Shown piece after piece: positions 3,153 through 58,710 of a stretch of DNA of 64,000 bases. The notes under the pieces were generated by a model that did not search any database, was not told the origin of the DNA, and saw nothing but the letters and a program-made list of their open reading frames with translations. Each line of letters begins with the position of its first letter. Position 1 is the first letter of the stretch. A program made the position numbers and the translations under genes. Origin of the DNA: an uncultured Bacilli bacterium (lineage in GTDB: Bacteria > Bacillota_I > Bacilli_A > ML615J-28 > CAG-313). The DNA lies in contig CALVCV010000001.1 of assembly GCA_944326155.1 (NCBI GenBank), positions 121,184 through 185,183 on the forward strand. The letters run 5' to 3'.

Positions 3153-3184
3153 AAAAAATAGAAGTTAAAAACTTCTATTTTTTT
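3153..3184. terminator. bidirectional intrinsic terminator between the small + gene and spo0A
   Basis: Hairpin AATAGAAGTT-aaa-AACTTCTATT (3157..3179), flanked by an A-run on the left and TTTTT on the right. Confidence 0.7.
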
Positions 3185-3968
3185 ACGCTAGATATCTCAT
3201 TTTCTTTTGACGTTTATGTTCTAAACGAAGTTTATCAGCAATCATAGCAATAAATTCAGAGTTCGTAGGTTTAGATTTATTATAACTGATTGTATAGCTA
3301 AAAATATCACTAATTGCGTCAACATTACCCCTTACCCAAGCAATTTCAATTGCATGACGTATTGCCCTTTCCACTCTTGAGGAAGTTGTTCCAAAAGATA
3401 TAGCAATTTCTGGATATAAAACTTTTGTAATTGAACCTAATATCTCAACATTATCATAAACCATTGCAATAGCTTCTCGTAAATACATATAACCTTTAAT
3501 ATGAGCTGGTACACCAACCTCATGTAATATCGAAGTAATTTCGCTATCTAAATCGGCATCAATATCATTTTTTACACTTTCTTCGCCTTCAGTGGTCATT
3601 CCTAAAATCAGTTGATATAATTTTTTGCCATCTACAGGTTTCATAATGATGTAATCCACATTTAATTGATTTAATTTTGTATTTACATAATTACTAATAA
3701 ATTGTGTCATCACAATAATGCGACGAGGTTGATGATATAATGTGGTATCTTTTTTAATGTTTTCAATTAAATTAATACCATCTACACCATTTAAGAATAA
3801 ATCAACAATAAGTACATCAACTTGTGTTACTTTTAAAGTGTTATAAAGATTGGCTTCGTTATTGTATGTACCTATTAAATTAATTTCTTCATATTTTTTT
3901 AGGAATGTACTAATTCCAGGTTCGTTATCATCGGTATTTTCTACGACAACCATTTTCAATTTTTGCAT
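3183..3968 (-). CDS. spo0A: sporulation master response regulator Spo0A
   Basis: Receiver domain with an acidic pocket (TDDNEP), the phospho-acceptor Asp in VLIVDLFL, and conserved Lys in IIMKPVD. The C-terminal Spo0A-specific DNA-binding domain carries the signature [16 protein letters not shown]. Confidence 0.9.
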
Positions 3969-4154
3969 AATATTTCCCCCTTTATTATATTATATGCAGT
4001 AATATTTTATCAAAAAAGAGGGTATTTAGCAAGTAATATATCTTTTTTATAAGTTTTTTAGAATATTTTTTAGTAATACTATGTTTTTTTATAGTAATAT
4101 TTTGTTAAAATAAAGGTTAATATTTATATTTTTGTTATTTATAGCACTTTTTTG

Positions 4155-5153
4155 TCAATTTCTTAAATCAACAATTTCATTAATCATCCATTCTATATGC
4201 ATTCCATAGCCATAAATTGGATTTTCGACAGTTACGTGAGAAACTGCACCAATTATTTTACCATTTTGAACAATTGGACTACCACTCATTCCTTGAATGA
4301 TGCCACCTGTTTCGTGAATTAAATCACTATCTGTTACTTTATAACGAATTCCTTTAGTTGCTTTTTGATTTTGTAAATTAACATCTGTTATTTCAATATC
4401 ATAGGATTCAATATCTTTACCACTAATTGTAGTATAAATTTGTGCCTTGCCTTTTTTGATTTCATTTTGCTCTGCTACTGCTAGTTTAGTCTTATTTTGC
4501 GTATTAGTCATAAATTTTCCATACAATCCTGAAACATCATTTAATAAAATTTTACCAATTGCAAGATTTTCCATTGAAGCTCTTTTTTCTCCTGCAATAC
4601 CAGGTTCTGCTTTTTTAATAGATGATACTGTTGAATAATATAAACTTCCACCATTATTTTTTAATAAAATTTGATTTTCATATATGGCATGTCCTAGTGA
4701 ACCAAAATAATTGTCATTAGTAATAAAGGTAAGTGTACCAATACCTAAAATTTGATCTCTAATATATAAACCAATTGATGGTTCAGCATTTTTGTTTTTA
4801 ATAATATCAATTTTAGTCGTTAAATTTTTTTCACCTCTACAAATAAAAAGTTCAACACTTTCACTATTACACTTTTTTAAATAATCCTGTAACTGATTGT
4901 TATTTTCAATTTTAATACCATTAATACTTTCAATTTTATCACCTAATTCAACATTTGATTCTTTCCATGGTATTTTTTTTCCATTTGATGTTTGAACTTG
5001 GTATTTACCAACAACATATACACCTGTTTTCATCTTTATGCCAATGGAATCGCCACCTAAAAAAACATAATCATCACTTTTTGCGTCCACTTCTAATGTC
5101 AAAGTTAGACTAAAAAATAGTAGAATTAGAAAAAATTTGATAATTTTTTTCAT
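4155..5153 (-). CDS. spoIVB: SpoIVB signalling serine peptidase (S55 family, PDZ domain)
   Basis: Signal/TM N-terminus, a PDZ-like middle region, and the catalytic motif QGMSGSPI. It sits immediately upstream of spo0A, as in Bacillus. Confidence 0.85.
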   Translation of the reverse strand: MKKIIKFFLILLFFSLTLTLEVDAKSDDYVFLGGDSIGIKMKTGVYVVGKYQVQTSNGKKIPWKESNVELGDKIESINGIKIENNNQLQDYLKKCNSESVELFICRGEKNLTTKIDIIKNKNAEPSIGLYIRDQILGIGTLTFITNDNYFGSLGHAIYENQILLKNNGGSLYYSTVSSIKKAEPGIAGEKRASMENLAIGKILLNDVSGLYGKFMTNTQNKTKLAVAEQNEIKKGKAQIYTTISGKDIESYDIEITDVNLQNQKATKGIRYKVTDSDLIHETGGIIQGMSGSPIVQNGKIIGAVSHVTVENPIYGYGMHIEWMINEIVDLRN

Positions 5154-10754: not shown

Positions 10755-12389
10755 TTAATTAAGTATAATTTCAAATGGGATAACACCAATTTGATTGGCA
10801 CTAAGATTATTACCATATATAAAACTATCTTGAGCATAACATATTTTTGATAATTTAATATAAGTCAGTTCTTCAGACGGCGAACTTATTGTGTCATCTA
10901 AAATAGATACTTGATCTGTTTCGACTGCTAAAAGATCAATGATAATTTGATTATGCTCAAAAGTATATTTAACCTCTACTTCCTCACCTTCAATATCATA
11001 AAACTTTAAGCCTTGGATTATATCATATTTATCAAAACTATTTACATTTGTAAATACAAGTCTAATTCTCACTTGTGCATCAGTAGAATCATATTCTTTT
11101 ACAGCATTATTTAACATTGGGGCATGATGAGCATTGATACTAAATTGATATAGTCTGCGACAAACTTTCATATAGTCAAGACCTAAAATTTGTAAATTAG
11201 CTAGATTTTCACTATCAATTTCGTATGCTTCTAAATATTTATCATTTACTGAATCATAAACAACGGCTAAATCATATGTTGGTACAATTTCAAAGCGATT
11301 ATAATAATTACATGTATTACTTTGTATTAATCTCAAAATTGCAGCATTGGCAACTTGATTGGTACCTTCTTGAAGATAAAAAATCCTATTTTCAACTAAA
11401 AAACTATTTTCAATTTCGGATAACATAGTATATAACATTTGACTATACACATTTTGAAAAGTATTGATATCATAATTTATATTATTATTCGCATCTATTA
11501 AGTCAGCAAGGCCTTGATGAATAACGATATTTGCATAACTCATCCCTTGCAATTTAGTAAGATACCTTTCTGATAAATAGGACATATCATCTTCTTCTAA
11601 AACTTGTGAATTTGTATATAAGTTCTTACTTACTAAATAATCTTTAATTACTTTTCGTGAGTCAATAATCTCACGACTTAGCCACTGATAAATATTTGAA
11701 TCTTGACTTGTAGCAAAAACAACTGAAATTGGTCTGCGATTCCAACTATTAAAAGTACTTTCAATTTGTCTAATCAATTGATAACCAAAATGAGATATTT
11801 CACGCTGAGCAGGAACCCATTCTTCGTTTAAATAAAACATAAAAGAATAATCTAATTGTCCATTTGCAGGTAAAAGGCTAGTATCAACAGGCACTTCTTC
11901 TTGAATTGGAAAATCGACATTTTCTAATTCATCTCCCATTATCATCCAAACTTCACCAAATTTGATATTGGTATATGTTTCATGATAAATTTCAGTTGAA
12001 TCATAAATTTTTAGTGTATATTCTTTCATACTAGCATCAGGAGTAGCTAAAGATAATCTCCAAAATCCATCATTATCAGTATTACCATAAACCTCACTGA
12101 CTAAAGAATTTTTATAGTTATATAATGCCGCAACCATCACAACACCAGGATTGGATTTACCTTCAATTTTTAAAGTTGAAGAAGCTTGAAAAACAGCATC
12201 ATCTTTCACATATTCGGTGACTGTAAATTTTTCAGTTGGTTTAGAACCGATAGGAATTTTTATGCGATGAACACATCCGCTCGCAAATAAACACCATGCG
12301 AATGTATTGATGATTAAAATTATTTGAAATATTTTTTTCATTATATCACTCCTTCTATGTATTATATCATAAAACATCACTTTAATCAA
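10755..12389 (-). CDS. large secreted lipoprotein of unknown function
   Basis: 544 aa. Signal peptide with lipobox LFASGC. No motif I can place. Cotranscribed with nusB across an 18-nt gap. Confidence 0.5.
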   Translation of the reverse strand: MIKVMFYDIIHRRSDIMKKIFQIILIINTFAWCLFASGCVHRIKIPIGSKPTEKFTVTEYVKDDAVFQASSTLKIEGKSNPGVVMVAALYNYKNSLVSEVYGNTDNDGFWRLSLATPDASMKEYTLKIYDSTEIYHETYTNIKFGEVWMIMGDELENVDFPIQEEVPVDTSLLPANGQLDYSFMFYLNEEWVPAQREISHFGYQLIRQIESTFNSWNRRPISVVFATSQDSNIYQWLSREIIDSRKVIKDYLVSKNLYTNSQVLEEDDMSYLSERYLTKLQGMSYANIVIHQGLADLIDANNNINYDINTFQNVYSQMLYTMLSEIENSFLVENRIFYLQEGTNQVANAAILRLIQSNTCNYYNRFEIVPTYDLAVVYDSVNDKYLEAYEIDSENLANLQILGLDYMKVCRRLYQFSINAHHAPMLNNAVKEYDSTDAQVRIRLVFTNVNSFDKYDIIQGLKFYDIEGEEVEVKYTFEHNQIIIDLLAVETDQVSILDDTISSPSEELTYIKLSKICYAQDSFIYGNNLSANQIGVIPFEIILN

Positions 12390-28096: not shown

Positions 28097-29479
28097 TCAT
28101 GATTTATCTATTCTTTTATTCTTATAAGGCTTACGAAATAACTGATTTAACAATGCTTTAAAATAAAACGGGATAAAAGGATATAAATAAGGTTTGCCAA
28201 AACTTTTTAATAACGACAAATAGAGTAGTAAAAAGGTAAGACTTAAGACTAGCCCGTAAATGCCAAAACAAAATACCATTAAAATGATGACTAATTTAAC
28301 AATTTTATTTGCCAAACTTAATTCATAACTTGGTGTGATATATGAACCTATTGCACTGATTGCGCCAAGTAAAACAATTTGTTCAGAAATTATACCAATA
28401 TCAATTGCCATTTCACCTATTATTATTCCTGCTATAATACCCATCGATGTAGATAAGGCATCAGGAGTATGAATTGATGCCATTCGAATAAATTCTATTC
28501 CAAGTTCCATTATCAGTAATTGGATAAAAATAGCCAAATGATTATTTTCTACTTCAAAAATTTTACCAAAATAAGTAAAATGAAAATTTTCGTATTGTAA
28601 AAAAGTAAACCAAAGTGGCACTGCTAAAAAAGATAAAATAATACCGATAAAACGAATAAAACGTAAATATGAACCAGATATCAATGTTTGTCTAAATTCT
28701 TCAGCATGCTGCATATGGTCAAAAATAGAAACTGGACCTAAAATAGCACTGGGTGATGTATCTACTATAATACCAAACATGCCTTGATATAAGTGTGAAG
28801 CAAAGGTATCCGGACGCTCTGTATATTTTACCAAAGGATATGGAGTATATGCATTTTTGATTAATAATTCTTCTAATGCTTTATCACTCATCGTTAGTTC
28901 ATCTACTTTTACATCTTCCAGTCGCTTTTTAATTTCGTTTAAATATTTTGAATTTACATAATCTTCAATATAAACCAAAGCAATATTTGTTTTACTAATT
29001 TTTCCTATCGTGTAATTAATAATTTTAAGATTTCCACTTTTTATACGTCTTCTTAAAAGGCCAATATTAATAGCAATATTTTCGGTAAAACCATCTCTAC
29101 TTCCTCTCACAACTTTTTCGCCATCTGGCTCCTCAATACCACGTGATGGATAATTTCTTACTTCTGCTATAATAGCACGTGGATCATCATCGACAAAAAT
29201 TGCTACATTACCATATAAGATAGCATCATAAATTAGTTCATAATTTTTTTCTATTGTAATACTTTCGTTTAATAATACTTTAGCAATTTGATCTATACCT
29301 AAAGTTGAGGTGTAGTTATCTAAACTATATATAATATGAATTACACCTTCGCTTTTTATTAAAAAATTTAAAAATACAAGCGTATAATTATGATATGAAG
29401 TCTCAATTTCTCGAAATGTAACATCAAATGATTCCTTATATGATAAGTCTTTTTTTAGTTTTTCAACGTATGCATTCAT
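28097..29479 (-). CDS. spoVAF: stage V sporulation protein AF (GerA-family A-subunit paralogue)
   Basis: 460 aa. GerAA-like soluble N-domain plus C-terminal TM bundle. It sits last in the spoVA operon. Confidence 0.7.
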   Translation of the reverse strand: MNAYVEKLKKDLSYKESFDVTFREIETSYHNYTLVFLNFLIKSEGVIHIIYSLDNYTSTLGIDQIAKVLLNESITIEKNYELIYDAILYGNVAIFVDDDPRAIIAEVRNYPSRGIEEPDGEKVVRGSRDGFTENIAINIGLLRRRIKSGNLKIINYTIGKISKTNIALVYIEDYVNSKYLNEIKKRLEDVKVDELTMSDKALEELLIKNAYTPYPLVKYTERPDTFASHLYQGMFGIIVDTSPSAILGPVSIFDHMQHAEEFRQTLISGSYLRFIRFIGIILSFLAVPLWFTFLQYENFHFTYFGKIFEVENNHLAIFIQLLIMELGIEFIRMASIHTPDALSTSMGIIAGIIIGEMAIDIGIISEQIVLLGAISAIGSYITPSYELSLANKIVKLVIILMVFCFGIYGLVLSLTFLLLYLSLLKSFGKPYLYPFIPFYFKALLNQLFRKPYKNKRIDKS

Positions 29480-29480
29480 A

Positions 29481-29831
29481 CTATCCTCGAGGTTTACAAA
29501 CTAAAGCGATAAGAAAAGAAAAGAAAATTGCAGCAGCAATACCTGTTGAAGTTAAATCAAAAATTCCTGTAAATAATCCCAAATAATCAGTGTTCATAGC
29601 TCCTTCTACTGCAGCATGAGTCAAAGAATGACCAAAACTTGCAATTGGCATTAGGGCACCTGCCCCTGCAAAAGCAATAATTTTATCATATAGTTGAAAT
29701 GCTTCTAAAACAGAACCCAAAACAACGAATAAAACGACTAACTGAGCAGGCAATAATTTAAAAATATCCATACATAGTTGTGCTAAAAGGCAGACCAATC
29801 CACCAAATAAAAAAGCATATAAAAAAATCAT
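29481..29831 (-). CDS. spoVAE: stage V sporulation protein AE (AEb-like)
   Basis: 116-aa membrane protein of SpoVAEb size, between spoVAD and spoVAF. Confidence 0.75.
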   Translation of the reverse strand: MIFLYAFLFGGLVCLLAQLCMDIFKLLPAQLVVLFVVLGSVLEAFQLYDKIIAFAGAGALMPIASFGHSLTHAAVEGAMNTDYLGLFTGIFDLTSTGIAAAIFFSFLIALVCKPRG

Positions 29832-30841
29832 TGTTTGCTCCTTTCTAGAGAAATTGCATGTGCGATAGCTGGAATTGTTTCACCTTGCGCAATCATAATA
29901 GGATTCATTAAAGCTCCCGTTGCAATTAATAAAACTTTACGATAAATACCTTTTTTGAGTGCATCTACAATATATCCCATGGAAACAAGACTAATACATC
30001 CACTACCGCTTCCACCCGCAAAAACCTCTTGATTTTCTAAATCATATAGCATCTTACCTGCATCATTATGATTAGTTGTTACGTTATAATTAAATTCTTT
30101 CATAATTTGTAAAAAAACTTCTGAACCATATTTAGATAAATCACCTGTTAAAATTAAATCATACTCATTGATATCAATTTCAAAATCTTCTAAATGTTGT
30201 TTCAGTGTCATTGCAGCAGCTGGAGCCATGGTTCTACCCATATCTTGAGTATCTGATAGTTCAGGATCAATAATTCTACCGATAGTTGCTCTTCTAATCT
30301 TTATGGGTGATGCAACACTAGACAAGATAGCTACTCCTGCACCTGTTGCAGTAAAAGTCATGGAATTTGGTTTTTGGCCACCATATTCAGTAGGATATCT
30401 AAATTGTCTTTCGCTTGTTGAATTGTGACTTGAGCTGACGACAAGAACATTTTCACCGAATTCCCCGTCAACTAACAATGATCCCACAATTAATGCTTCC
30501 GTACATGTTGAACATGCACTATATACTCCGAGATAGGGAATATTGAAGTCTCTTGAAGCATAGTTTGTTGCCACAATTTGATTATTTAAATCTCCTCCTA
30601 CAATAGCTTTCATATCATCAATTTTAAGTCCCAATTTTTTTAAAGCGCATAAAATGGCATCTTTTTGTAAGCGAATCTCTGCTTTTTCCCAACTTTCTTC
30701 CCCACAATATGAGTTTTCATAACTATCATCAAAATATTTACCTAGTGGACCTTTTCTTTCTCTTGGCCCAGAAATAGTTGCCGATGAACGTAAAAATACA
30801 TTATTAAATTCTATACTATTTTTTCCTCTTGCAAACATCAA
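29828..30841 (-). CDS. spoVAD: stage V sporulation protein AD
   Basis: 337 aa, thiolase/KAS-like fold, conserved position. Confidence 0.8.
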   Translation of the reverse strand: MMFARGKNSIEFNNVFLRSSATISGPRERKGPLGKYFDDSYENSYCGEESWEKAEIRLQKDAILCALKKLGLKIDDMKAIVGGDLNNQIVATNYASRDFNIPYLGVYSACSTCTEALIVGSLLVDGEFGENVLVVSSSHNSTSERQFRYPTEYGGQKPNSMTFTATGAGVAILSSVASPIKIRRATIGRIIDPELSDTQDMGRTMAPAAAMTLKQHLEDFEIDINEYDLILTGDLSKYGSEVFLQIMKEFNYNVTTNHNDAGKMLYDLENQEVFAGGSGSGCISLVSMGYIVDALKKGIYRKVLLIATGALMNPIMIAQGETIPAIAHAISLERSKQ

Positions 30842-30842
30842 A

Positions 30843-31331
30843 TCACCTAAATAAATAAATTACGTTTCCGACAATAAAAGCACTAAGCACTCCTGCAACA
30901 ATTACCGCTCCCGCAAGTTTAAACATATTAGACATTATCCCTAAAATAATACCTTCACTTTTACTTTCTAATGCTGATGAAGTCATCGAATTAGCAAAGC
31001 CAGTAATTGGAATGATAGTACCAGCACCTGAAAATTGACCAATTTTATCAAAGATACCAATTCCTGTTAAAAGGCTTGTTATACCTACAATCACAATATA
31101 CATCAAACTTATTGCTTTATCTTTTTCAATATTCAGTAAATCTTTAAAAAACCATAATATTCCTTGTGCAAATAAACAAATTGTACCACCTACAAGAAAT
31201 GCTTTAATAGAATTTAAAAAGATAGGTCTTTTAATAGTATTTCTATCCAATACTTTTTTAAAAATACTTTTTTCCATGAAATTACTTCCTTTCATGTTTT
31301 TAGTATTAGTATTTTTTACCATTGTATACAA
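30843..31331 (-). CDS. spoVAC: stage V sporulation protein AC
   Basis: 162 aa, 4 TM segments, glycine-rich GAGTIIPITGFANS. The ORF-track start is a TTG; the in-frame ATG is at 31322. Confidence 0.8.
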   Translation of the reverse strand: MYTMVKNTNTKNMKGSNFMEKSIFKKVLDRNTIKRPIFLNSIKAFLVGGTICLFAQGILWFFKDLLNIEKDKAISLMYIVIVGITSLLTGIGIFDKIGQFSGAGTIIPITGFANSMTSSALESKSEGIILGIMSNMFKLAGAVIVAGVLSAFIVGNVIYLFR

Positions 31332-31343
31332 AAAAGTGAAAAT

Positions 31344-31649
31344 TTACTTTTCACTTTTTGAAATTGTGGTTGTAGTTTGAATAAATTCCCATGTTTCATC
31401 ATATTGAATATCAACTTTTCGCAAACTTTTTTTTATTGCTTGCAAGATAATTGGAATAGCAAATTTTGCAAAATTGCAATTTTTTTGTAAATCATATAAT
31501 CTAACCGCTTGAATTAATCCTCTAAACCCAGCTTGTAACAAAATTTCTCTATTTTGATATGGAACATTCATCTTATCCACTAATAGATAAACTAAAATTA
31601 GATTCTCATTGATGATATACTCATAATTATGATAGTTCCATCTGTTCAT
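31344..31649 (-). CDS. sigF: truncated sigma-F-like protein (sigma region 2 only, 101 aa); possible pseudogene
   Basis: It aligns to SigF/SigG region 2.1-2.4: ILVYLLVDKM..., LLQAGFRGLIQAVRLYDLQKNCNFAKFAIPIILQAIKK. It overlaps spoIIAB by 23 nt, as native sigF does. It stops 12 nt before spoVAC. Regions 3 and 4 are absent. Confidence 0.6.
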   Translation of the reverse strand: MNRWNYHNYEYIINENLILVYLLVDKMNVPYQNREILLQAGFRGLIQAVRLYDLQKNCNFAKFAIPIILQAIKKSLRKVDIQYDETWEFIQTTTTISKSEK

Positions 31650-32064
31650 TATACTTTTTCACCATTAATACTTTTGTTCCTTCATTTAGTTTTGATTTCA
31701 CCTCTAGTTTATCCGTAAAAACCTCCATAATTGTAAATCCTAATCCAGCTCTTTCTTCTTCTAATTTAGTTGAAAAAAGAGGTTCTCTTGCTTTTTCAAC
31801 ATCTTCAATTCCCACTCCGTCGTCGATTACTTCAATATAAATATTTTTGGCATCATATGATAAATTTAATTGTACATATTTATTTTCATTAGATAGACAA
31901 CCATGTACAATGGCATTTGTTACAGCTTCAGAAATAACTGTTTTTACCTCATTTAGAAAATTAAGTGGTAAGTCTAGCCCTACTAAAAATCCCACTCCTA
32001 CGGTTCTTGCTAACATGACATTATCTACTTTTGCCAAAAAGGATGTTCTAATTTCATTATACAT
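31627..32064 (-). CDS. spoIIAB: anti-sigma F factor (serine kinase SpoIIAB)
   Basis: 145 aa. Close match to the B. subtilis SpoIIAB pattern: EIKTVISEAVTNAIVHG, GVGIEDVEKAREPLFSTK, GLGFTIMEVFTD. Confidence 0.85.
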   Translation of the reverse strand: MYNEIRTSFLAKVDNVMLARTVGVGFLVGLDLPLNFLNEVKTVISEAVTNAIVHGCLSNENKYVQLNLSYDAKNIYIEVIDDGVGIEDVEKAREPLFSTKLEEERAGLGFTIMEVFTDKLEVKSKLNEGTKVLMVKKYNEQMELS

Positions 32065-32414
32065 TACATTACCTCCACAATTTTAGCTGCCTCTGTTTCG
32101 TTTGCAGCAACACTACAAATTTTTTTTAGCCCTGACAAATTAAAAATTCGCTCAATTAGTCGATTCATTGAACAAATTACAATTCTACCATTTCTTCTTC
32201 TTACCTGCGAATACCTTCCGATTATAAAACCTACACCACTACTATCCATAAAATTTAATTTTTCAAAATTAAATATTAAATATTTTATCTCATATTTGTC
32301 TATTAGTTCACTTATCCTAATTTTCAATTTTTCAGTTACTGCTTGATCCAATTCCCCATTTAAGCGAACAAATAACATATTTTTTCTAATTGACATTTGT
32401 ATATTGACTGACAT
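32064..32414 (-). CDS. spoIIAA: anti-sigma F factor antagonist (STAS domain SpoIIAA)
   Basis: ORF track gives 32064..32606. Trimmed to MSVNIQMSIRKNMLFVRLNGELD at 32414, with a GGAGGGG RBS. STAS motif FMDSSGVGFIIGRY carries the phosphorylatable Ser. Confidence 0.8.
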   Translation of the reverse strand: MSVNIQMSIRKNMLFVRLNGELDQAVTEKLKIRISELIDKYEIKYLIFNFEKLNFMDSSGVGFIIGRYSQVRRRNGRIVICSMNRLIERIFNLSGLKKICSVAANETEAAKIVEVM

Positions 32415-32535
32415 CTTATCCCCCTCCATTAAAATTTTAACATAAATTATTACTTGATACAAAAAGAATTGATTACCAAAAATAAAGCTCTCATAAAACG
32501 ACATTTTATTAAGGGCTTTATTTATCAAAAAATAT

Positions 32536-32576
32536 ATAAAAACAGAGTTTTTTGTATAATAAACTCTGTTTTTATT
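32536..32576 (-). terminator. intrinsic terminator after dacF
   Basis: Hairpin AAAACAGAGTT-ttttgtataataa-AACTCTGTTTT (32538..32572) followed by a U-run on the minus strand. Confidence 0.65.
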
Positions 32577-32577
32577 A

Positions 32578-33738
32578 TCATAATATCTTAGAAAATATAA
32601 TTGCAAATAATTCTAAAAAATTACTCTTTTTAACTTTTTCTTTTAACTCTAAATCAATAATTTTATATAGTTTATCATCAATATAAACGTATAGCTTACC
32701 TATTTTTTGTCCTTCACCACTAGTAATTTTTTGATCATCAATTCTAATTTCGTAGTTAATTATGCCATCTTTAGCATTTTTCTCAATCATCCTTGCGATG
32801 TCTTGCGATAAAACGATATTATAGATAGATGGATTCATTAAAATATTTTCTTCTGTTTGTACGATTGAACCTTTTGGACTAATTAATTGTTTTTCGAAAT
32901 TAGCAAAAGTATAGTTTAACAAATTGATGGTATCTTGATTACGACCATCAACTGTAGGAGCACCCATGACAACTGAAATAATACGCATTCCATTTGCTTT
33001 TTTAGTAGCTACAAGACAATATCCTGCTTGATTTGTCCACCCTGTCTTGAGACCATCAATTTCATTTTTTCCTTTAATCAATTTGTTCGTGTTGACAAGC
33101 CAAAAAGGCTTATCAGTGTCTTTTCGTAAATAAGTTTCATACATTGACGATAGAGGGATAATCTCATCACCATATTTTGCAAGCAATTCTCTAGCAATGA
33201 TTGAAAGATCATGTGCTGTAGTAACATGACCTTCTTCATGAAGACCTGTTGCATTTAAATAATGTGTATTTTTCATACCCAGATTAATTGCTTCCTCGTT
33301 CATTTTCTTAACAAATAGTTCCTCAGTACCTGCAACAGCTTCTGCTAGTGCTACTGCAGCATCATTGGCAGAAGCAATAACAACAGCTTTTAGCAAATCA
33401 TCAACTGTCATTTGTTCATTTGGTGCCAAATAGATTTGACTACCTCCCATAGAAGAGGCATATTCTGAAGTGGTAATCAGTTGATCATGCTTTAATTTTC
33501 CATCATGAATGGCATCCATAATTAACTTAATTGTCATAATTTTAGTTGTACTTGCAGGAAATCTTACTTCATCCATCTTATATTCATATAGAATGTCACC
33601 CGTATCTAACTCAATAACAATACCACTTTTTGCTGATTTTAATAAATTGTCTTCTGCATGAACCCAAATTTTATTACAAAATATCATTACCAAAAATACA
33701 ATAACTATGAGTAAACCTTTTTTACATCCTTTTTTCAC
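32578..33738 (-). CDS. dacF: D-alanyl-D-alanine carboxypeptidase (PBP5-like; DacF by position)
   Basis: 386 aa. Signal peptide, SxxK motif ASTTKIMT, and SxN/KTG-type motifs. It lies immediately upstream of spoIIAA, as in Bacillus. Confidence 0.85.
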   Translation of the reverse strand: MKKGCKKGLLIVIVFLVMIFCNKIWVHAEDNLLKSAKSGIVIELDTGDILYEYKMDEVRFPASTTKIMTIKLIMDAIHDGKLKHDQLITTSEYASSMGGSQIYLAPNEQMTVDDLLKAVVIASANDAAVALAEAVAGTEELFVKKMNEEAINLGMKNTHYLNATGLHEEGHVTTAHDLSIIARELLAKYGDEIIPLSSMYETYLRKDTDKPFWLVNTNKLIKGKNEIDGLKTGWTNQAGYCLVATKKANGMRIISVVMGAPTVDGRNQDTINLLNYTFANFEKQLISPKGSIVQTEENILMNPSIYNIVLSQDIARMIEKNAKDGIINYEIRIDDQKITSGEGQKIGKLYVYIDDKLYKIIDLELKEKVKKSNFLELFAIIFSKIL

Positions 33739-33800
33739 TATATCACCACTTTAATGTATGAAAAAAAGCAAAAAAATATAACAAAAAAGCATAAACCTTT

Positions 33801-41038: not shown

Positions 41039-41599
41039 TTATTCGTCAATATTAGAATCATCATAACTTTTTTTATTACTTTCAATCACAATTAATGTGC
41101 CAATTCCCACACAAGCCGTAGTAAGTAAGGCAAAAAATATTGAAATCGTCCAATTTACTTCTTCTTTTAACCATCTTCCTGCAGGTATATAAAATTTTTT
41201 ATCATTTTTTTCATAATTATCTACATTTATATAACTAATTTCAAGTTCCAAAGTGCCAGTTTGCCAATTTTCAATCGTGTAATTAATTTGATAATAATGT
41301 TTGTGTTTATCATTTTCATTATCGACTTGATGATAATATTCAATATTTGAAAAAATTTGTTCAATATCGGCAATTTTAGAAGTAATTGCTGTGATAATAA
41401 TTTCTTTTTCGGTACTCCAGCTTAAAGATAATTCAACTTTTAATTTTCCATGCTCACGAATTTTAGCTGTTTCAAATTCAAAATTTTCAAATTCTACATC
41501 ATCTTCTATAGCAAACACCTCATTTGATGATTTGCAACAAATACAACAACAAATCGTTAAAACTAATAATAATAATGCTATTTTATTTATTTTTGTCAT
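41039..41599 (-). CDS. membrane-anchored protein with an N-terminal Cys cluster (CCCICC) and a C-terminal TM helix
   Basis: 186 aa. Signal-like N-terminus LLLLVLTICCCICCKSS. C-terminal TM segment ISIFFALLTTACVGIGTLIVI. Confidence 0.4.
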   Translation of the reverse strand: MTKINKIALLLLVLTICCCICCKSSNEVFAIEDDVEFENFEFETAKIREHGKLKVELSLSWSTEKEIIITAITSKIADIEQIFSNIEYYHQVDNENDKHKHYYQINYTIENWQTGTLELEISYINVDNYEKNDKKFYIPAGRWLKEEVNWTISIFFALLTTACVGIGTLIVIESNKKSYDDSNIDE

Positions 41600-42045
41600 T
41601 AACGATCACGCTCCTTAAAATTTTTTAAGTATTTATTCAAGGAAGCATTACTAATTTTAACTCTCAAAACGGAAATTAAAACAATAATAACAAGACCAAT
41701 TACTAAAAACATAATAGTCGCGATAAATAATTTAACATTATAAATTAAGTCATAAAAATAAAGCAAATAACCTGTTATTAAAATAATGGCTGATAAAAAT
41801 AAATAGATTACAATAACTTGAACAACAATCGAAATTTTATTTATTTGCAAAAACCCCAATAAAAACAAACTAGCAACTGATGAAATAATAGCAAAAATGA
41901 TTAAATTCTTACCAAAACTAATATCTTGATAAATATACTCCGAAATACTTGCAAAAATAATTGTAATAATGGCAAAAATTGTTAGGGTCATAACAAAATA
42001 ATTGGTAACAAGACTTTTTATTGGTAGTTTTTTCTTCTGTTTCAT
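41599..42045 (-). CDS. small polytopic membrane protein (candidate LytTR-system membrane partner)
   Basis: 148 aa, about 4 TM. Lies 13 nt downstream of the LytTR gene. Confidence 0.45.
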   Translation of the reverse strand: MKQKKKLPIKSLVTNYFVMTLTIFAIITIIFASISEYIYQDISFGKNLIIFAIISSVASLFLLGFLQINKISIVVQVIVIYLFLSAIILITGYLLYFYDLIYNVKLFIATIMFLVIGLVIIVLISVLRVKISNASLNKYLKNFKERDR

Positions 42046-42057
42046 TATTTTATTCTC

Positions 42058-42495
42058 CTATCCATTTAATTTTTGCTTAAAAGCTCTTGCATATACTCGA
42101 GTAATAATCATACGCTCATTGTTTATTAGTACAGCACTAATTCTTCCATTAACAAGAGTACTAACTTTTTCAATTTTATTGATATTTAAAATAATAGTTC
42201 TTGCAACTTGTATAAAAGATGTTCTAGCCAATATCTTAGTTAATTCTTGAAGTTTATAATTTACTTCATAGACATTTTTTTCTACATATGCAAAGACGCG
42301 ATTTTCCACAGCTTCAAAATAAAAAATATCGTCTAGGTTTAAAACATACGTTTCGCCATCCAATTTTCCATTAATCGTAATATAGCTTGTACGGATATAA
42401 TTACTAATTTTATGGATTTTATCATCTATTTTTTTACATTTAATGAAAATTTCTGTTTCTTCTAAATTTGAAACTTCATCAATTTGTAATTTCAT
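42058..42495 (-). CDS. LytTR-family DNA-binding protein (stand-alone, no receiver domain)
   Basis: 145 aa. LytTR-like pattern in KISNYIRTSYITINGK...FIQVARTIILNINKIEKV. Confidence 0.65.
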   Translation of the reverse strand: MKLQIDEVSNLEETEIFIKCKKIDDKIHKISNYIRTSYITINGKLDGETYVLNLDDIFYFEAVENRVFAYVEKNVYEVNYKLQELTKILARTSFIQVARTIILNINKIEKVSTLVNGRISAVLINNERMIITRVYARAFKQKLNG

Positions 42496-42512
42496 AAGTC
42501 ACCTCGCTGCTT

Positions 42513-43337
42513 CTATTTAAAACGGTTGCGGTATGTGCATTTCTTACACAATTCAAAATAGGGCTTCCGATTATTAAAGCCTAAAAGAGCTTCTTGACAA
42601 GTTTTACTAGCAAGTAAAGTAGGTAAATCATTAGTTAATAAATTACCAATTTTCGTTTTTCCCTGATAATCAAGGCAACACAAACAAAGCGTACCATCAT
42701 TTAAAATAGCAAACTGTTTTTTTCCACCATAACAGTTTGTTAAAGTGGTATTATAACTATGTTCTAGGGAAGGCCAAGTAAATTCGTCTGCTTTTGAAAT
42801 ATTAATATTAATACTACTTTTTACTATAGGTTGATAAATTTGTAATACTTTTTGTGTTAACAATAAATTAGTCAAATAATTTTTATTATTCCATAATCTT
42901 AAATTTATAGCAATCAAATGTTCTTTTTTTGATCTTTTTTCTAAAAATTCATTTAAATGCTTAAAATACAAATCTTGCTCAGCTTCATCAAAATTAATTA
43001 AACACTGGAGAGAAATATTTAATTTTTGTAAATATTGATATTTTAAGAGTTGATTTTCATATTTATATAACAACACTCCATTGGTAGTGATACCAAAAGG
43101 AATTTTATGTACTTCACAATAATCTAATATTTTGATAAAATTAGGATGCAAGGTAGGTTCGCCTAAAACATGAAAATAAAGAATTTTAATATACTCATGA
43201 ATTTTATCAATAAGTTGTATAACCATTTCAAATGGCATAAATTTATGTTTTTTAACATTAGATGATGGACAAAAAGGACATTTTAAATTACATGCTGTAG
43301 TAATTTCTAAGTAGAAATTATATTTTCTTTTGTTCAT
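42513..43337 (-). CDS. radical SAM enzyme with a C-terminal Cys-rich (SPASM/twitch-like) extension
   Basis: 274 aa. CNLKCPFCP is the CxxxCxxC motif. C-terminal Cys pattern: C-x15-C-x-CC...C...C-x2-C. Confidence 0.8.
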   Translation of the reverse strand: MNKRKYNFYLEITTACNLKCPFCPSSNVKKHKFMPFEMVIQLIDKIHEYIKILYFHVLGEPTLHPNFIKILDYCEVHKIPFGITTNGVLLYKYENQLLKYQYLQKLNISLQCLINFDEAEQDLYFKHLNEFLEKRSKKEHLIAINLRLWNNKNYLTNLLLTQKVLQIYQPIVKSSININISKADEFTWPSLEHSYNTTLTNCYGGKKQFAILNDGTLCLCCLDYQGKTKIGNLLTNDLPTLLASKTCQEALLGFNNRKPYFELCKKCTYRNRFK

Positions 43338-43894
43338 TTGTCAATTTCTTCAAATTCCGCATCAATAAAACTATTACCATTTGCTTGTTCCTCTTGCTTT
43401 TTAAAATGATTATTCGAAATAAATAGTAAAATAAATCCGTATGCTATAATCAAAATAGATATAATACGTAAAACCCACATACCTATATTTTCAATACCAC
43501 AAAAAATTAGCATTAAAGAAATAATGATTTTATATATTGCAATGCTAAATAAATCTTTTATTTTTTTAGTAAAAATTGCCATCAAAATTGTATAAAGCAA
43601 AAAACAAATACCTAAAATTAATGATACTAATCTCGATGAAAAAAACAATATAAATATACCAAAAATTATTTTAATAATACCATCATATAAATAGTTTTGA
43701 TGAAATGAAAAATTTATTTTCTTAATATTTATATGAATATATATAATGATACCACCAATAATGATTAAGCAAATTCCTAATATTTTTACAATTGCGTTGA
43801 TGATTGCGTCTCCAAAAGGCCATACAATGAGTGCAAAAATGGTACCTAAAATAATATAATACATACCAATCATAGATTTTTTATTCATAAACAT
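43334..43894 (-). CDS. polytopic membrane protein
   Basis: 186 aa, 5-6 TM. 4-nt overlap with the radical SAM gene. Confidence 0.5.
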   Translation of the reverse strand: MFMNKKSMIGMYYIILGTIFALIVWPFGDAIINAIVKILGICLIIIGGIIIYIHINIKKINFSFHQNYLYDGIIKIIFGIFILFFSSRLVSLILGICFLLYTILMAIFTKKIKDLFSIAIYKIIISLMLIFCGIENIGMWVLRIISILIIAYGFILLFISNNHFKKQEEQANGNSFIDAEFEEIDK

Positions 43895-43904
43895 ACGTTA
43901 ATCC

Positions 43905-44243
43905 TTATATAGTAGTTTTAGCAAAAAGTTTCAAATTTTTATTTGGCATAACTGACTCATTAAATAAAGTCATACATTCTTCATCTAAATACCAAGTATC
44001 TATATCTTGATAAGAATAAGAAAGAATTATATCTTTTTGTTTATAATATTTTGTATAGACTAGTTTTCCATCTACATAATAACGAATACGAAACTTTTTA
44101 AAAAAAATTAAGTATGCAATTAAGATAAACCATGGTAAAATGCCTAAAGTAAGCAAAATAATTTGAAAAGCATACCAATTTTTGCCTAATTCGTCAGCGG
44201 GAACATTTTCTAGTAATAAAAAAAAGCATCGAATATTAAACAT
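43905..44243 (-). CDS. small single-pass membrane protein
   Basis: 112 aa. One TM helix (FQIILLTLGILPWFILIAYLIFF) and a Tyr/Lys-rich C-terminal domain. Confidence 0.4.
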   Translation of the reverse strand: MFNIRCFFLLLENVPADELGKNWYAFQIILLTLGILPWFILIAYLIFFKKFRIRYYVDGKLVYTKYYKQKDIILSYSYQDIDTWYLDEECMTLFNESVMPNKNLKLFAKTTI

Positions 44244-44964
44244 TATTTGTCTCCTTTAATTCTAAAATACGATATTTCCATTTTTTATTCAATATAGTTA
44301 AATATTTTTTTGATGTTAATAGTATTAATTTTTGATACACAAAAAGCAAATCATTTTTTGCTCCTTCATCTAAAAGTTTTTGATATACTTTTTCCATATG
44401 AAGAGCTACTAATCGGTAGTAATAATATGCATTAATTGGTTTATTTAAATTATAAAAAGCATTAGCTAAAAACAATTTAGATAAAACTATAAATTTTAAA
44501 TCTTCATTGGTTTTGGTCTTTTTATATAATTGTTTTGCCTTATGTAACATTTTTTTACTAGTTATAACAATATAATTGCCATCATTATTATCAAACATCA
44601 AATTAATCGTTTTGATATACCAATCAATTAAATATCTTAATTCATCCATGCTAGAATTAATTTCTGATGAATCTTGCAAAATACCAATAATTTTTTGATA
44701 CCAACGTTGAACTAAATCTTTTCTTGAATTATTCACATAATACTCACTTATTTTTTGATAACATTCTATCACTTTTAGGCGATCTTTATGAGAAAAGGTG
44801 TGGCGATATAGATTTTCAGCAATTCTACAAGTTTTTAAATATAACTTTTCAGCTTCAATCATGTTTCCATTTAGTTCAAAATTATTTGCTTGTTGCAAGA
44901 TTTCAGAAAGCTTTATTCTTTTTTCATTGTTTGTTAATTCTTTTTTGTCAATTTTAGTTTCCAT
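44236..44964 (-). CDS. soluble all-helical (TPR-like) protein, first gene of the operon
   Basis: 242 aa. AAAGGG RBS. Overlaps the next gene by 8 nt. Confidence 0.4.
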   Translation of the reverse strand: METKIDKKELTNNEKRIKLSEILQQANNFELNGNMIEAEKLYLKTCRIAENLYRHTFSHKDRLKVIECYQKISEYYVNNSRKDLVQRWYQKIIGILQDSSEINSSMDELRYLIDWYIKTINLMFDNNDGNYIVITSKKMLHKAKQLYKKTKTNEDLKFIVLSKLFLANAFYNLNKPINAYYYYRLVALHMEKVYQKLLDEGAKNDLLFVYQKLILLTSKKYLTILNKKWKYRILELKETNNV

Positions 44965-51268: not shown

Positions 51269-52093
51269 TCATTTTTCAGCATCAGAAATAAATTGTTTCA
51301 TCTTATCAATTGCACCTTTTTCAATAATTTGTGCTCTTTGTCTAGAAATGGCAAATTTATTAGCAATATCACTAAAAGAATGAAAAATACCATCATCATA
51401 TCCATAACGATACTTAATAATTCTAGCCTCCCTTGGTGAAAGTTCAGTAAGAGCAGCTAAAATTAATTTGTTTTTCTCATCATTCAAAACAGCTTCTTGT
51501 GGCGTATCTTCATCATCTTTTATGATTTCAATTACACTTGTATCTTTATCTGAATCAATTACTTTATCAAGTGAAGCAACATTTGATATATCAAATAGCA
51601 TTCTCAATTCAGATGGTTTTACGCCCATTTGATGAGCAACTTCATCAAAAGTAACTTTTCTTTGTAAAGTAGATACCATTTGTTCTTCGGTTACAAAAAA
51701 TTGTTTTTTCAACTCTGATATGTTATTTGGTTGATCAGCATTTTTTAGAGCTTTATGTAACCCTTTACTAATGCTTTGTTTAATCCAATAACTGGCATAT
51801 GAAGCGAACTTAATACCTTTATGATAATCAAAACGATCAACCGCTTTAGAAAGGCCAATCATCCCTAATTGAACAATATCATCATTTGAAAGGGAGCCAG
51901 TTGGATAATAATTTTTAGCAATACTATAAACTAATTTAAGGTTAGCTTTAATCATAATGGTTTGAACATCTTCTCGAAGATTACTATGTTTTTCGAGTAG
52001 CATAAATATTTGTTGTTCTTCTTCGAATGTTAATAATCTTTTTTCGCCAAGTTCTTCACAAGTCAATAGTTCTGTAATTATATCTTTTTCCAC
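51269..52093 (-). CDS. sigma-70 family RNA polymerase sigma factor (compact RpoD-like, regions 2-4)
   Basis: 274 aa. Region 2.4 FASYASYWIKQSI resembles the group-1/2 sequence FSTYATWWIRQAI. Region 4 HTH: LSPREARIIKYRYG...ISRQRAQIIEKGAIDKMK. Confidence 0.75.
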   Translation of the reverse strand: MEKDIITELLTCEELGEKRLLTFEEEQQIFMLLEKHSNLREDVQTIMIKANLKLVYSIAKNYYPTGSLSNDDIVQLGMIGLSKAVDRFDYHKGIKFASYASYWIKQSISKGLHKALKNADQPNNISELKKQFFVTEEQMVSTLQRKVTFDEVAHQMGVKPSELRMLFDISNVASLDKVIDSDKDTSVIEIIKDDEDTPQEAVLNDEKNKLILAALTELSPREARIIKYRYGYDDGIFHSFSDIANKFAISRQRAQIIEKGAIDKMKQFISDAEK

Positions 52094-57591: not shown

Positions 57592-58710
57592 TTATGAATT
57601 TTTAAATAAAATTACAAAAACAACGACAAAAATAAGCATAATAATGAAAATTAGAATTGAAACTTTTGCAATTGAAATTGGAACTTTACCAGTAATTTTT
57701 CCCGTCTCACCATTTGAAATAAAACGATAGTCTTTGTTCGCATATTTGTAGGTACCAATCCAAATAGGAATCAACACATATTTATACTTTATACTATTAA
57801 ATGTTGTATTAACATTCAAATAACTTACAACATCATGATTATAACCACGTAAAATTTCTCTTTTAATGATGGCATTCATTCTAATTTTCGCATTATCCCA
57901 TCCCATATTTAGACGAACAACATAATGTTCTGAACTAAAACCTGCTAAATACCTTTTATCATATTCGTATGAATTATTCGTATTAAAGGGTGAGATAGCA
58001 TTGATTTCGCTTTGGCTTATTTTAGATCCAGCGTTGACAATTAAATCATCAAAAGTCACTTGTTTACTACCACGTACATAAAAGTATCTAACTTCAGTTA
58101 TCGTTCTTCGATTTTTTCCAGATCCTACTGTTCTTGTATAATGTTTTCCTAATTTACCATCATATATCGAAAAGGTATTGCTATCAAATGTCCAAATAGG
58201 TAAATATACTCCACGCAATACAAGTTTAGGAATATTTTTTTTAACTTTAGATGGAACAAAAAATTTCTTTTTAATCCATAATGAATAGTTCTGTTTAGTA
58301 TTAGATTCAGAAATTTGAAAAGGAATTACGCGATGTGGTTTAATACCAACTAACTCATTTGTTTCTACTACTTGATTTGAGCCACAAAAAGGACATGTGA
58401 TACTGATTGCATTAGTATCTACAATATTATTGGCACCACAATTATCGCAATGAACAACTTTGGTTTCTTCACCCCAACTATTATCTTCTTTTGTGCCTTC
58501 AAAAAAGTCATTTTCTTCTTTACCTGCTTTTCCATCAAGTGTAATTTCTAATCCGCAATATTCACAATGTAAGGCACCTTTTTCTGGTAAATAACTAAGT
58601 GGTGCACCACAACTTGGACAACTATAATCTTCCGTTTTACAATTGCCTTCATCTAATTTTAAATTTTTATCTTCATCCATAATTATAATGCTTTTCCACA
58701 GTTTGTACAA
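57592..58710 (-). CDS. double zinc-ribbon protein with a C-terminal TM anchor (YdjG/YdjH-like)
   Basis: 372 aa. CPSCG...CEYCG and CDNCG...CPFCG ribbons, a 220-aa domain, then TM segment ISIAKVSILIFIIMLIFVVVFVILF. The start overlaps the upstream SPFH gene by 28 nt. Confidence 0.5.
   Translation of the reverse strand: MYKLWKSIIIMDEDKNLKLDEGNCKTEDYSCPSCGAPLSYLPEKGALHCEYCGLEITLDGKAGKEENDFFEGTKEDNSWGEETKVVHCDNCGANNIVDTNAISITCPFCGSNQVVETNELVGIKPHRVIPFQISESNTKQNYSLWIKKKFFVPSKVKKNIPKLVLRGVYLPIWTFDSNTFSIYDGKLGKHYTRTVGSGKNRRTITEVRYFYVRGSKQVTFDDLIVNAGSKISQSEINAISPFNTNNSYEYDKRYLAGFSSEHYVVRLNMGWDNAKIRMNAIIKREILRGYNHDVVSYLNVNTTFNSIKYKYVLIPIWIGTYKYANKDYRFISNGETGKITGKVPISIAKVSILIFIIMLIFVVVFVILFKNS

Follow-up and report, generated by a model that had tools for sequence, protein, structure and literature searches.

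An apparent SigF remnant reduced to sigma domain 2 in the spoIIA–spoVA locus of uncultured gut Bacilli

The sporulation locus analysed here lies in a stretch of 64,000 nucleotides (nt), called the window, from contig CALVCV010000001.1 (assembly GCA_944326155.1, positions 121,184 to 185,183) of an uncultured Bacilli bacterium. The gene order on the minus strand is: a gene in the dacF position, spoIIAA, spoIIAB, a short open reading frame (ORF) in the slot of sigF, spoVAC, spoVAD, spoVAEb, spoVAF and RNase J. Of the compartment-specific sigma factors of endospore formation SigF is the first, and it normally ranks among the most conserved sporulation proteins. The ORF in its slot encodes only 101 amino acids (aa) and is referred to below as the stump; it is a sigma factor reduced to one domain, which is real, ancient, recurrent in two lineages and under selection. 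The stump and its immediate borders comprise the following features:

31344–31649, minus strand: sigma-2-only ORF of 101 aa, positional sigF orthologue (ORF list; Pfam Sigma70_r2 only; shared slot)
31659–31663, minus strand: GGTGA ribosome-binding site of the stump, read from the sequence, within the 3' end of spoIIAB and 9 nt before the ATG
31410–31625, minus strand: sigma domain 2 (regions 2.1–2.4), residues 9–80 (1L0O_C alignment, AlphaFold, Foldseek)
31347–31409, minus strand: tail, residues 81–101, acidic then hydrophobic, a low-confidence helix
31330–31359, minus strand: terminator-like hairpin overlapping the stump stop codon (−10.7 kcal/mol, z −3.95)
31301–31329, minus strand: putative spoVA promoter of the sigmaF/G type, GTATA, 17 nt, AATACTA (cross-species motif)
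31627–32064, minus strand: spoIIAB, anti-sigma F factor and SpoIIAA kinase, 145 aa (TIGR01925, 157.5 bits, cutoff 135)

The stump starts with an ATG and overlaps spoIIAB, whose stop lies at 31627, by 23 nt. Residues 13–78 match Pfam Sigma70_r2 (PF04542; E 5.4e-7, 29.7 bits, cutoff 24), and no Pfam model of region 3 or region 4 matches the protein. The top NCBIfam models are SigB/F/G, SigG and SigF, each matched over its N-terminal third only (38–43 bits, cutoffs 234–457); the score against the SigF equivalog TIGR02885 is 38.7 bits, at a cutoff of 321. Among solved structures, the best relative by sequence is sigmaF in the SpoIIAB–sigmaF complex (1L0O, chain C residues 31–99). An AlphaFold model based on 28 homologues has a predicted local distance difference test (pLDDT) score of about 90 at residues 11–80 and of 45–60 in the tail. 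The model superposes on isolated sigma domain 2 structures with a root-mean-square deviation of about 2 Å (Foldseek), with a target-normalised TM-score of 0.85 for 8b3z, and by this model sigma domain 2 is complete through region 2.4. The protein ends 23 residues past region 2.4, which leaves only 66 nt to spoVAC. The tail can be aligned with the tails of the sister species L020 and L021, is more variable than domain 2, and its last codons form the 5' arm of the terminator.

These observations agree in large part with an earlier note on this DNA. The layout of the spoIIA/spoVA locus, the length of the ORF, its overlap with spoIIAB and the match to sigma region 2 alone had all been described there and have been confirmed, the neighbouring genes by Pfam and NCBIfam models. 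SpoIIAA and SpoIIAB, taken to be intact, both pass their curated cutoffs; SpoVAD and SpoVAEb also exceed theirs, and SpoVAC scores slightly under its own. The description of the tail as unrelated does not hold in view of the alignment with L020 and L021.

Compared to SigF (TIGR02885; 1L0O chain C), the stump shares the slot after spoIIAA–spoIIAB, the overlapping start, the best region 2 match and a set of graded intermediates. In contrast to SigF, it is devoid of regions 3 and 4, its motifs in regions 2.2–2.4 are degraded and it cannot read a −35 element. Judged by these features, the stump is a SigF orthologue by descent, for which the label sigma F is inappropriate, because region 3, region 4 and the curated score are missing from what the family demands and only region 2 and the slot are present. 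In public annotation the gene is merely a “hypothetical protein” or a “sigma factor”.

The host clade consists of uncultured AT-rich Mollicutes-related gut Bacilli, with relatives publicly named Staphylococcus sp. CAG:324, uncultured Mollicutes bacterium UMGS116, Acholeplasmatales bacterium and an Anaeroplasma metagenome-assembled genome (MAG). One genome per species was scanned with a SpoIIAB alignment, which yielded 80 loci, and the ORF following spoIIAB was measured and aligned in each. The window SpoIIAB belongs to a 90%-identity cluster that includes proteins of very common gut MAGs, in which the slot holds a 97-aa region-2-only ORF. An exhaustive phmmer search of 1.84 billion representatives with the stump gave best matches mostly of 77–121 aa, followed by 150–206 aa; context look-ups placed the matches of 106, 168, 199, 85 and 87 aa all in the same slot.

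Across 53 related species the product of the sigF slot is about 200 aa long, then 150–181 aa, then 68–106 aa. The forms are distributed as follows: (i) about 186–212 aa, comprising region 2, a short region 3 and region 4, in the majority of the clade, including Mycoplasmatota bacterium WC44 (a complete genome) and Coprobacillus sp. CAG:698; (ii) 150–181 aa, with regions 2 and 4, in one large subclade and in the pair L042/L044, which reached this state independently; (iii) 79–101 aa, with region 2 only, in a monophyletic group nested within that subclade and formed by the window, L020 (Staphylococcus sp. CAG:324), L021 (UMGS116), L022 and L029; (iv) a second region-2-only branch, L049 (68 aa) and L060 (77 aa), situated among forms of 190–209 aa. 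SpoIIAB identity is 63% between L049 and L060 and only 50–56% between these two and the window. The nesting comes from neighbour joining on six flanking proteins; data are missing from this simple distance tree and its details are approximate, and the SpoIIAB identities agree with the nesting. When 13 region-2-only proteins were used for a profile search, 19 clusters at 90% identity were recovered, 18 of which are 76–106 aa long, the remaining one being 158 aa on a contig of 882 nt. The gene in the sigF slot has been lost outright in none of the clade loci examined, and an overlap of 8–29 nt with spoIIAB is retained in nearly all of them.

By this comparison it is well supported that sigF in the clade lost region 3 first and region 4 afterwards, with domain 2 remaining, and the tree places the origin of the region-2-only state in two separate lineages. 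The identity of the stump as a sigF remnant, taken together with this history, is held with high confidence. A recent deletion, one of the possibilities put forward in the earlier note, is ruled out by the ancient state shared among relatives: it is common to at least five species with more than one synonymous substitution per site (dS >1) and to a second independent lineage, and the ORF is fixed in thousands of metagenome assemblies. As for the orthologues that have regions 2 and 4 without region 3 (L023–L036, L042 and L044), they represent an architecture like that of extracytoplasmic function sigma factors, derived from a group 3 sigma at least two times. Two candidates met during the scan were rejected: P0047, considered as a sigG or sigE gene, proved to be an ordinary sigF occupying this slot in a different organism, and L062, considered as a SpoIIAB–sigma fusion, proved to be a normal gene pair.

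At least 22 independent contigs, taken from ENA, NCBI and Logan assemblies produced by different assemblers, carry the exact 101-aa protein, all with the same gene order, and one further contig carries the stump with a single amino-acid variant. The identical ORF and context recur in MEGAHIT, SPAdes and Logan assemblies of many samples. The 97-aa orthologues are unchanged on at least 1000, at least 988 and at least 650 contigs, and the few variants are single conservative substitutions. That a sequencing or assembly artefact conceals a full-length sigF, and with it regions 3 and 4, has a negligible probability given the same ORF from several assemblers, the thousands of orthologue contigs and the mere 66 nt left before spoVAC. 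Two rare single-contig variants of the 97-aa orthologue, P0146 (235 aa, a SpoIIAB–stump fusion) and P0139 (114 aa, extended), are most likely sequencing frameshifts on very short contigs (525–934 nt).

Selection on the stump was assessed by Nei–Gojobori estimates of the ratio of nonsynonymous to synonymous substitution rates (dN/dS) between species. For L020 and L021, the sole unsaturated species pair (dS 0.46), the ratio is 0.034 over the first 80 codons of the stump and 0–0.13 for nine neighbour genes. For the window and L020 (dS about 1.2, near saturation) it is 0.195, against 0.04–0.21 for the neighbours; among these, spoIIAB has 0.037 and two upstream housekeeping genes about 0.2. Within a species, five contigs of the CAG:324 type, picked by SpoIIAB identity, differ pairwise in the stump by 12 synonymous and 0 nonsynonymous changes. 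The other five frames of the region-2-only ORFs contain 4–21 stops. In a neutral simulation (a simple substitution model with the base composition of the window), 80 codons stayed open in 0.2–0.3% of runs at a distance of 1.2 and in less than 1% at 0.5. The low dN/dS, the synonymous-only variation, the intact frames in populations and the improbable neutral survival indicate, at the level of sequence evolution, that selection on the encoded protein preserves the ORF. Over more than one synonymous substitution per site the frame has stayed open and its amino acids constrained, and the signs of a pseudogene, a dN/dS near 1 and broken frames, were not found: the ratio is 0.03–0.2 and the frame is intact on thousands of contigs. 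The sigma-2-only protein that the earlier note listed as retained is thus under purifying selection, and its short ORF recurs in relatives, as that note had also considered.

The constraint falls short of that on a normal sigma factor, so that domain 2 is retained under purifying selection of a relaxed kind. Region 2.1 (the LVY helix) is conserved about equally in stumps and longer forms, the stumps keep the hydrophobic core and the glycines, and regions 2.3 and 2.4 retain part of their aromatic and basic positions (F60, F/Y63, I68 and K73). The stump evolves about two times as fast as its longer orthologues.

The border between the stump and spoVAC contains signals of its own. The hairpin extends from 31359 to 31331, its 3' arm entering a run of six T at 31335–31330, and relatives have hairpins of differing sequence in the same place. 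A terminator scan requiring three G–C pairs gave no match, the AT-rich stem having two. Directly past the hairpin begins the motif (T)GTATA-N17-AATACTA. Of 43 clade loci, 38 have its general form, G[TAC]AT[AG]-N17/18-[AC]A[AT]A[ACT]TA, before spoVAC, where shuffles predict 1.5; all seven region-2-only species are among them. In the window alone there is one match against 0.27–0.7 expected, which is not significant, and so only the cross-species conservation is informative. The motif resembles the sigmaG/sigmaF consensus, GHATR-N18-CATXHTA. Fusion of sigF to the spoVA operon, which the earlier note had coupled with its deletion, is ruled out by the T-run hairpin and the conserved separate promoter that still intervene.

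The reading of this interval depends on the start of spoVAC, for which a revised position is given together with the remaining elements of the spoIIA operon:

30843–31277, minus strand: spoVAC with revised start, 144 aa, beginning MEKSIF (ribosome-binding site AAAGGAAG at 31285–31292; Pfam SpoVAC_SpoVAEB)
32064–32414, minus strand: spoIIAA, anti-anti-sigma factor with a STAS domain, 116 aa, ATG at 32414 (TIGR02886, 114.9 bits, cutoff 114.75)
32434–32444, minus strand: extended −10-like element TATGTTAAAAT, putative spoIIA operon promoter (position shared with relatives)

With the ATG at 31277, the gap after the stump is 66 nt and holds both the terminator hairpin with its T-run and the promoter. 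In L022 and L029 the sole start of spoVAC follows the same ribosome-binding site. The distance of 12 nt reported earlier derives from the longest-ORF start, and the likely gap is that of 66 nt. Starts chosen as the longest ORF or by gene callers (159–175 aa; 30843–31331, minus strand) run across the spoVA promoter, and the public annotations of spoVAC are probably too long at the 5' end.

A motif of the type TGnTAAAAT (TGnTAxAAT) occurs upstream of spoIIAA at the same position in relatives, and several relatives have perfect Spo0A boxes, TGTCGAA, upstream of this gene. To judge from these elements, the spoIIA operon is probably switched on by Spo0A, which is encoded at 3183–3968. In SpoIIAB, R20 and the ATP-binding motifs are invariant, at a dN/dS of 0.04–0.05, and the SpoIIAA translation contains the DSSG phosphorylation motif. 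The SpoIIAA/SpoIIAB switch is intact as far as its dN/dS of 0–0.05 and the kept catalytic motifs can tell. The spoIIAA frame is open upstream to a TTG (180 aa; 32064–32606, minus strand) and gene callers give 146 aa; the 116-aa form from 32414 is favoured by the family model and by the ribosome-binding site GGAGGGGG.

A −35 element such as that of the spoVA promoter, unchanged over more than one substitution per synonymous site, needs a sigma with region 4. The stump has none, and thus another sigmaF/G-type sigma must be active. In Bacillus subtilis and Clostridioides difficile spoVA is sigmaG-dependent, and the consensus sequences of sigmaF and sigmaG closely resemble each other (PMC3789822). 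Searches for the missing half have been made at several levels. A region-4 profile built from orthologues found nothing in the six frames of the window (best E 0.34), in agreement with the earlier statement that no alternate frame encodes region 4, and the only other sigma in the window is an RpoD-like protein of 274 aa at 51269–52093. The region-4 halves of the closest orthologues, used as a profile in a search of limited sensitivity, retrieved only fragments of region-2+4 orthologues from other species, none of them linked to region-2-only genomes; together with the lack of a region-4 ORF in the window, this lends no support to the proposal that the 3' half of sigF has been relocated. The exhaustive phmmer search with the stump detected no full-length protein more than 47% identical to the stump, which makes a recently translocated intact copy unlikely. 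Among the 80+ loci retrieved, those of the clade contained no extra sigma gene.

The stump is very likely a functional protein and probably has a new regulatory job, because it has long been kept intact by selection. It is most likely a non-initiating protein-binding module in the SpoIIAA/SpoIIAB circuit, with the beta-prime subunit of RNA polymerase or SpoIIAB as putative partner. Since it lacks a domain reading the −35 element, the stump would be unable to act as a promoter-specificity factor. The spoVA promoter, GTATA-N17/18-AATAnTA, would be read by another sigma of the sigmaF/G type encoded elsewhere, probably sigmaG, and this other sigma would now probably be gated by the SpoIIAA/SpoIIAB switch. 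In the simplest model, forespore transcription has passed to a sigmaG-like factor. The stump, the third cistron of the operon after spoIIAA and spoIIAB, with a terminator of its own, represents a stand-alone sigma domain 2 as the end state of the stepwise loss. The beta-prime clamp helices are the universal docking site of sigma domain 2; when sporulation begins, the stump may dock on them as a competitor or modulator that does not itself initiate. SpoIIAB inhibits sigmaG as well as sigmaF (PMC4383634), and small forespore proteins such as Fin modulate sigma usage (PMC5942855). As a whole, the explanation made up of remnant, sigma handover and binding module is the best available, although we favour it without considering it probable; the polymerase-docking mechanism is preferred within it, tentatively and with rather more doubt.

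Several points weigh against this explanation. The sigmaG of these genomes is putative, and for the consensus sequences with which the promoters were compared the cited literature gives a general description only. The motifs DDLxQAG (region 2.2), FSTYA (region 2.3) and GEIK (region 2.4) are degraded in the stumps and strongly conserved in the longer forms. The DDLxQAG residues contact beta-prime in other sigmas, and the decay of this motif, as read from the alignment, is an argument against classical core docking. Measured against SpoIIAB, divergence is 3–4 times as fast for the stump and about 1.5 times for the longer forms; such a raised rate fits relaxed constraint or a changed function better than classical core docking. 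In distant pairs, where dS is saturated, dN/dS reaches 0.3–0.5.

The target of the stump might also be SpoIIAB rather than the polymerase. As a decoy, it would keep the region 2.1 contact and titrate or buffer the anti-sigma factor, thereby setting the release threshold of the real forespore sigma, comparable to the sequestration of NepR by the sigma-like domain of PhyR. The apparent co-transcription and translational coupling of the stump with spoIIAB in every lineage is consistent with this role, as is a region 2.1 conserved about as well as in the longer forms while regions 2.2–2.4 decay. N-terminal residues of sigmaF are implicated in SpoIIAB binding (PMC3174212, citing Decatur and Losick 1996), and sigma mimicry is an established mechanism (PMC8103513). 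However, the coupling to spoIIAB is ancestral and hence provides no evidence of a current interaction, and the stump evolves 3–4 times faster than SpoIIAB. Moreover, region 3, the SpoIIAB-binding domain, was lost first in the clade: in the 1L0O crystal complex the ordered SpoIIAB-binding part of sigmaF is domain 3. A decoy is considered unlikely. It is still less likely that the stump works as a sigma under retained SpoIIAA/SpoIIAB control, be it as one half of a split sigma with its partner elsewhere or as a minimal −10-only sigma with an activator. The domain 2 fold complete through region 2.4, the partly kept aromatic and basic positions of regions 2.3/2.4 and the truncation right after region 2.4 in both lineages would suit such a factor, and cases are known in which separate proteins carry sigma 2 and sigma 4 (PMC8103513). 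Against it stand the degraded −10-recognition motifs, the lack of a region-4 ORF, both in the operon and across all frames of the window, and a profile search that tied no region-4 fragment to a region-2-only genome; the conserved −35 GTATA before spoVAC likewise argues for a conventional two-domain sigma.

The stump could, on the other hand, be a non-functional sigF relic, open by chance or for the sake of operon translation (coupling, mRNA stability, or an embedded terminator or promoter). In this clade sporulation genes are undergoing reductive loss (PMC10868615); the canonical motifs of the stump have decayed, its rate is raised, its last codons overlap the terminator stem and its length varies from 68 to 106 aa, all of which would suit a relic. 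However, a need for translation alone would leave the amino acids unconstrained, whereas dN/dS is 0.03–0.2 in the informative pairs and the variation within a species is synonymous only. In addition, the ORF persists in at least 13 divergent lineages, in each of which its chance of neutral survival is under 1%, and no locus of the clade has lost the gene altogether. A relic is regarded as very unlikely, and the non-initiating binding module remains the preferred reading.

Single sigma domains and sigma-derived regulators are known from other systems. In the SigO–RsoA pair of Bacillus subtilis (YvrI–YvrHa), RsoA is, like the stump, a small protein with the function of sigma region 2 only. However, RsoA adjoins its sigma-4 partner SigO and is not derived from SigF, whereas the stump resides in an anti-sigma operon with no region-4 partner co-encoded in the operon or the window. 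The late sigma gp55 of phage T4, about 185 aa, has only a domain-2-like fold and works with gp33 and the sliding clamp at TATAAATA promoters; it too is a sigma-family protein reduced to domain 2, but of phage origin. The stump resembles RsoA and gp55 in architecture only. The PhyR/NepR system would offer a likeness in mode of action if the stump were a decoy: the sigma-derived domain of PhyR has degenerate core- and DNA-binding residues and acts via anti-sigma binding. In the stump the motifs of regions 2.2 and 2.3/2.4 are less conserved than in the longer orthologues, and the residues of the fold are kept. In contrast to the stump, PhyR retains both sigma 2 and sigma 4, joined to a receiver domain, and its anti-sigma NepR is not a GHKL kinase like SpoIIAB. 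Fin (YabK) is a small sporulation protein of the forespore that modulates sigma usage, inhibits sigmaF and binds the sigma docking site of beta-prime. Its fold and origin are unrelated to those of the stump, and its gene is under sigmaF and sigmaG control, outside the spoIIA operon.

In a limited literature search, no description of a conserved sigma-2-only SigF derivative was found. A survey of these orders reported multiple independent losses of sporulation via intermediate states and does not mention a truncation of sigF (PMC10868615); its text and supplement contain no sigF data, and the supplement no per-gene data for sigF or sigG. The clade thus provides a graded natural series in which SigF sheds region 3 and then region 4 while SpoIIAA/SpoIIAB and spoVA stay strongly constrained, a concrete molecular intermediate for the rewiring or dismantling of sporulation in the Mollicutes-related radiation treated in that survey. 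It would imply a transfer of the SpoIIAA/SpoIIAB switch to another sigma, and it amounts to a natural experiment on the capabilities of an isolated sigma domain 2 in the cell. The carrier bacteria are common in human gut metagenomes, with orthologues on thousands of contigs. If the stump were a working initiation factor, it would be the smallest cellular sigma known.

The remaining genes and elements of the locus are:

28097–29479, minus strand: spoVAF, encoding a GerA-family protein (library match)
29481–29831, minus strand: spoVAEb (passes its curated cutoff)
29828–30841, minus strand: spoVAD (passes its curated cutoff)
32578–33738, minus strand: D-Ala-D-Ala carboxypeptidase gene in the dacF position (Pfam Peptidase_S11)
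33753–33781, minus strand: upstream motif of the dacF-position gene, TTATATT-N14-CATACATT (motif matches)

A motif related to TTATATT-N14-CATACATT occurs in 8 of 40 clade loci, where 0.2 are expected; with its very short leader the assignment is uncertain. It fits the mother-cell sigmaE type better than the forespore type expected for dacF. Spo0A (3183–3968) and SpoIVB are encoded within the interval 3183–5153. SpoIVB (332 aa; 4155–5153, minus strand) is without about 80 N-terminal residues of the Bacillus form and matches TIGR02860 from model position 83 on, with 301.7 bits at a cutoff of 305.25; no convincing sigmaF/G-type promoter was seen by eye in its upstream region.

Elsewhere in the window, the best models for the 274-aa sigma factor (51269–52093, minus strand) are of the RpoD/RpoS type, covering regions 1.2–4, and no cutoff of a sporulation sigma was passed. 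The gene adjoins ung and a cardiolipin synthase gene, and the protein is too short for a typical Firmicute SigA. Two ORFs, of 544 aa (10755–12389, minus strand) and 372 aa (57592–58710, minus strand), have no Pfam or NCBIfam match at the thresholds used. Seven small genes at 41039–44964 on the minus strand include those for a radical SAM/SPASM protein (42513–43337) and a receiver-less LytTR DNA-binding protein (42058–42495), four ORFs of the run being without a Pfam match; this run may be a peptide-modification cluster.

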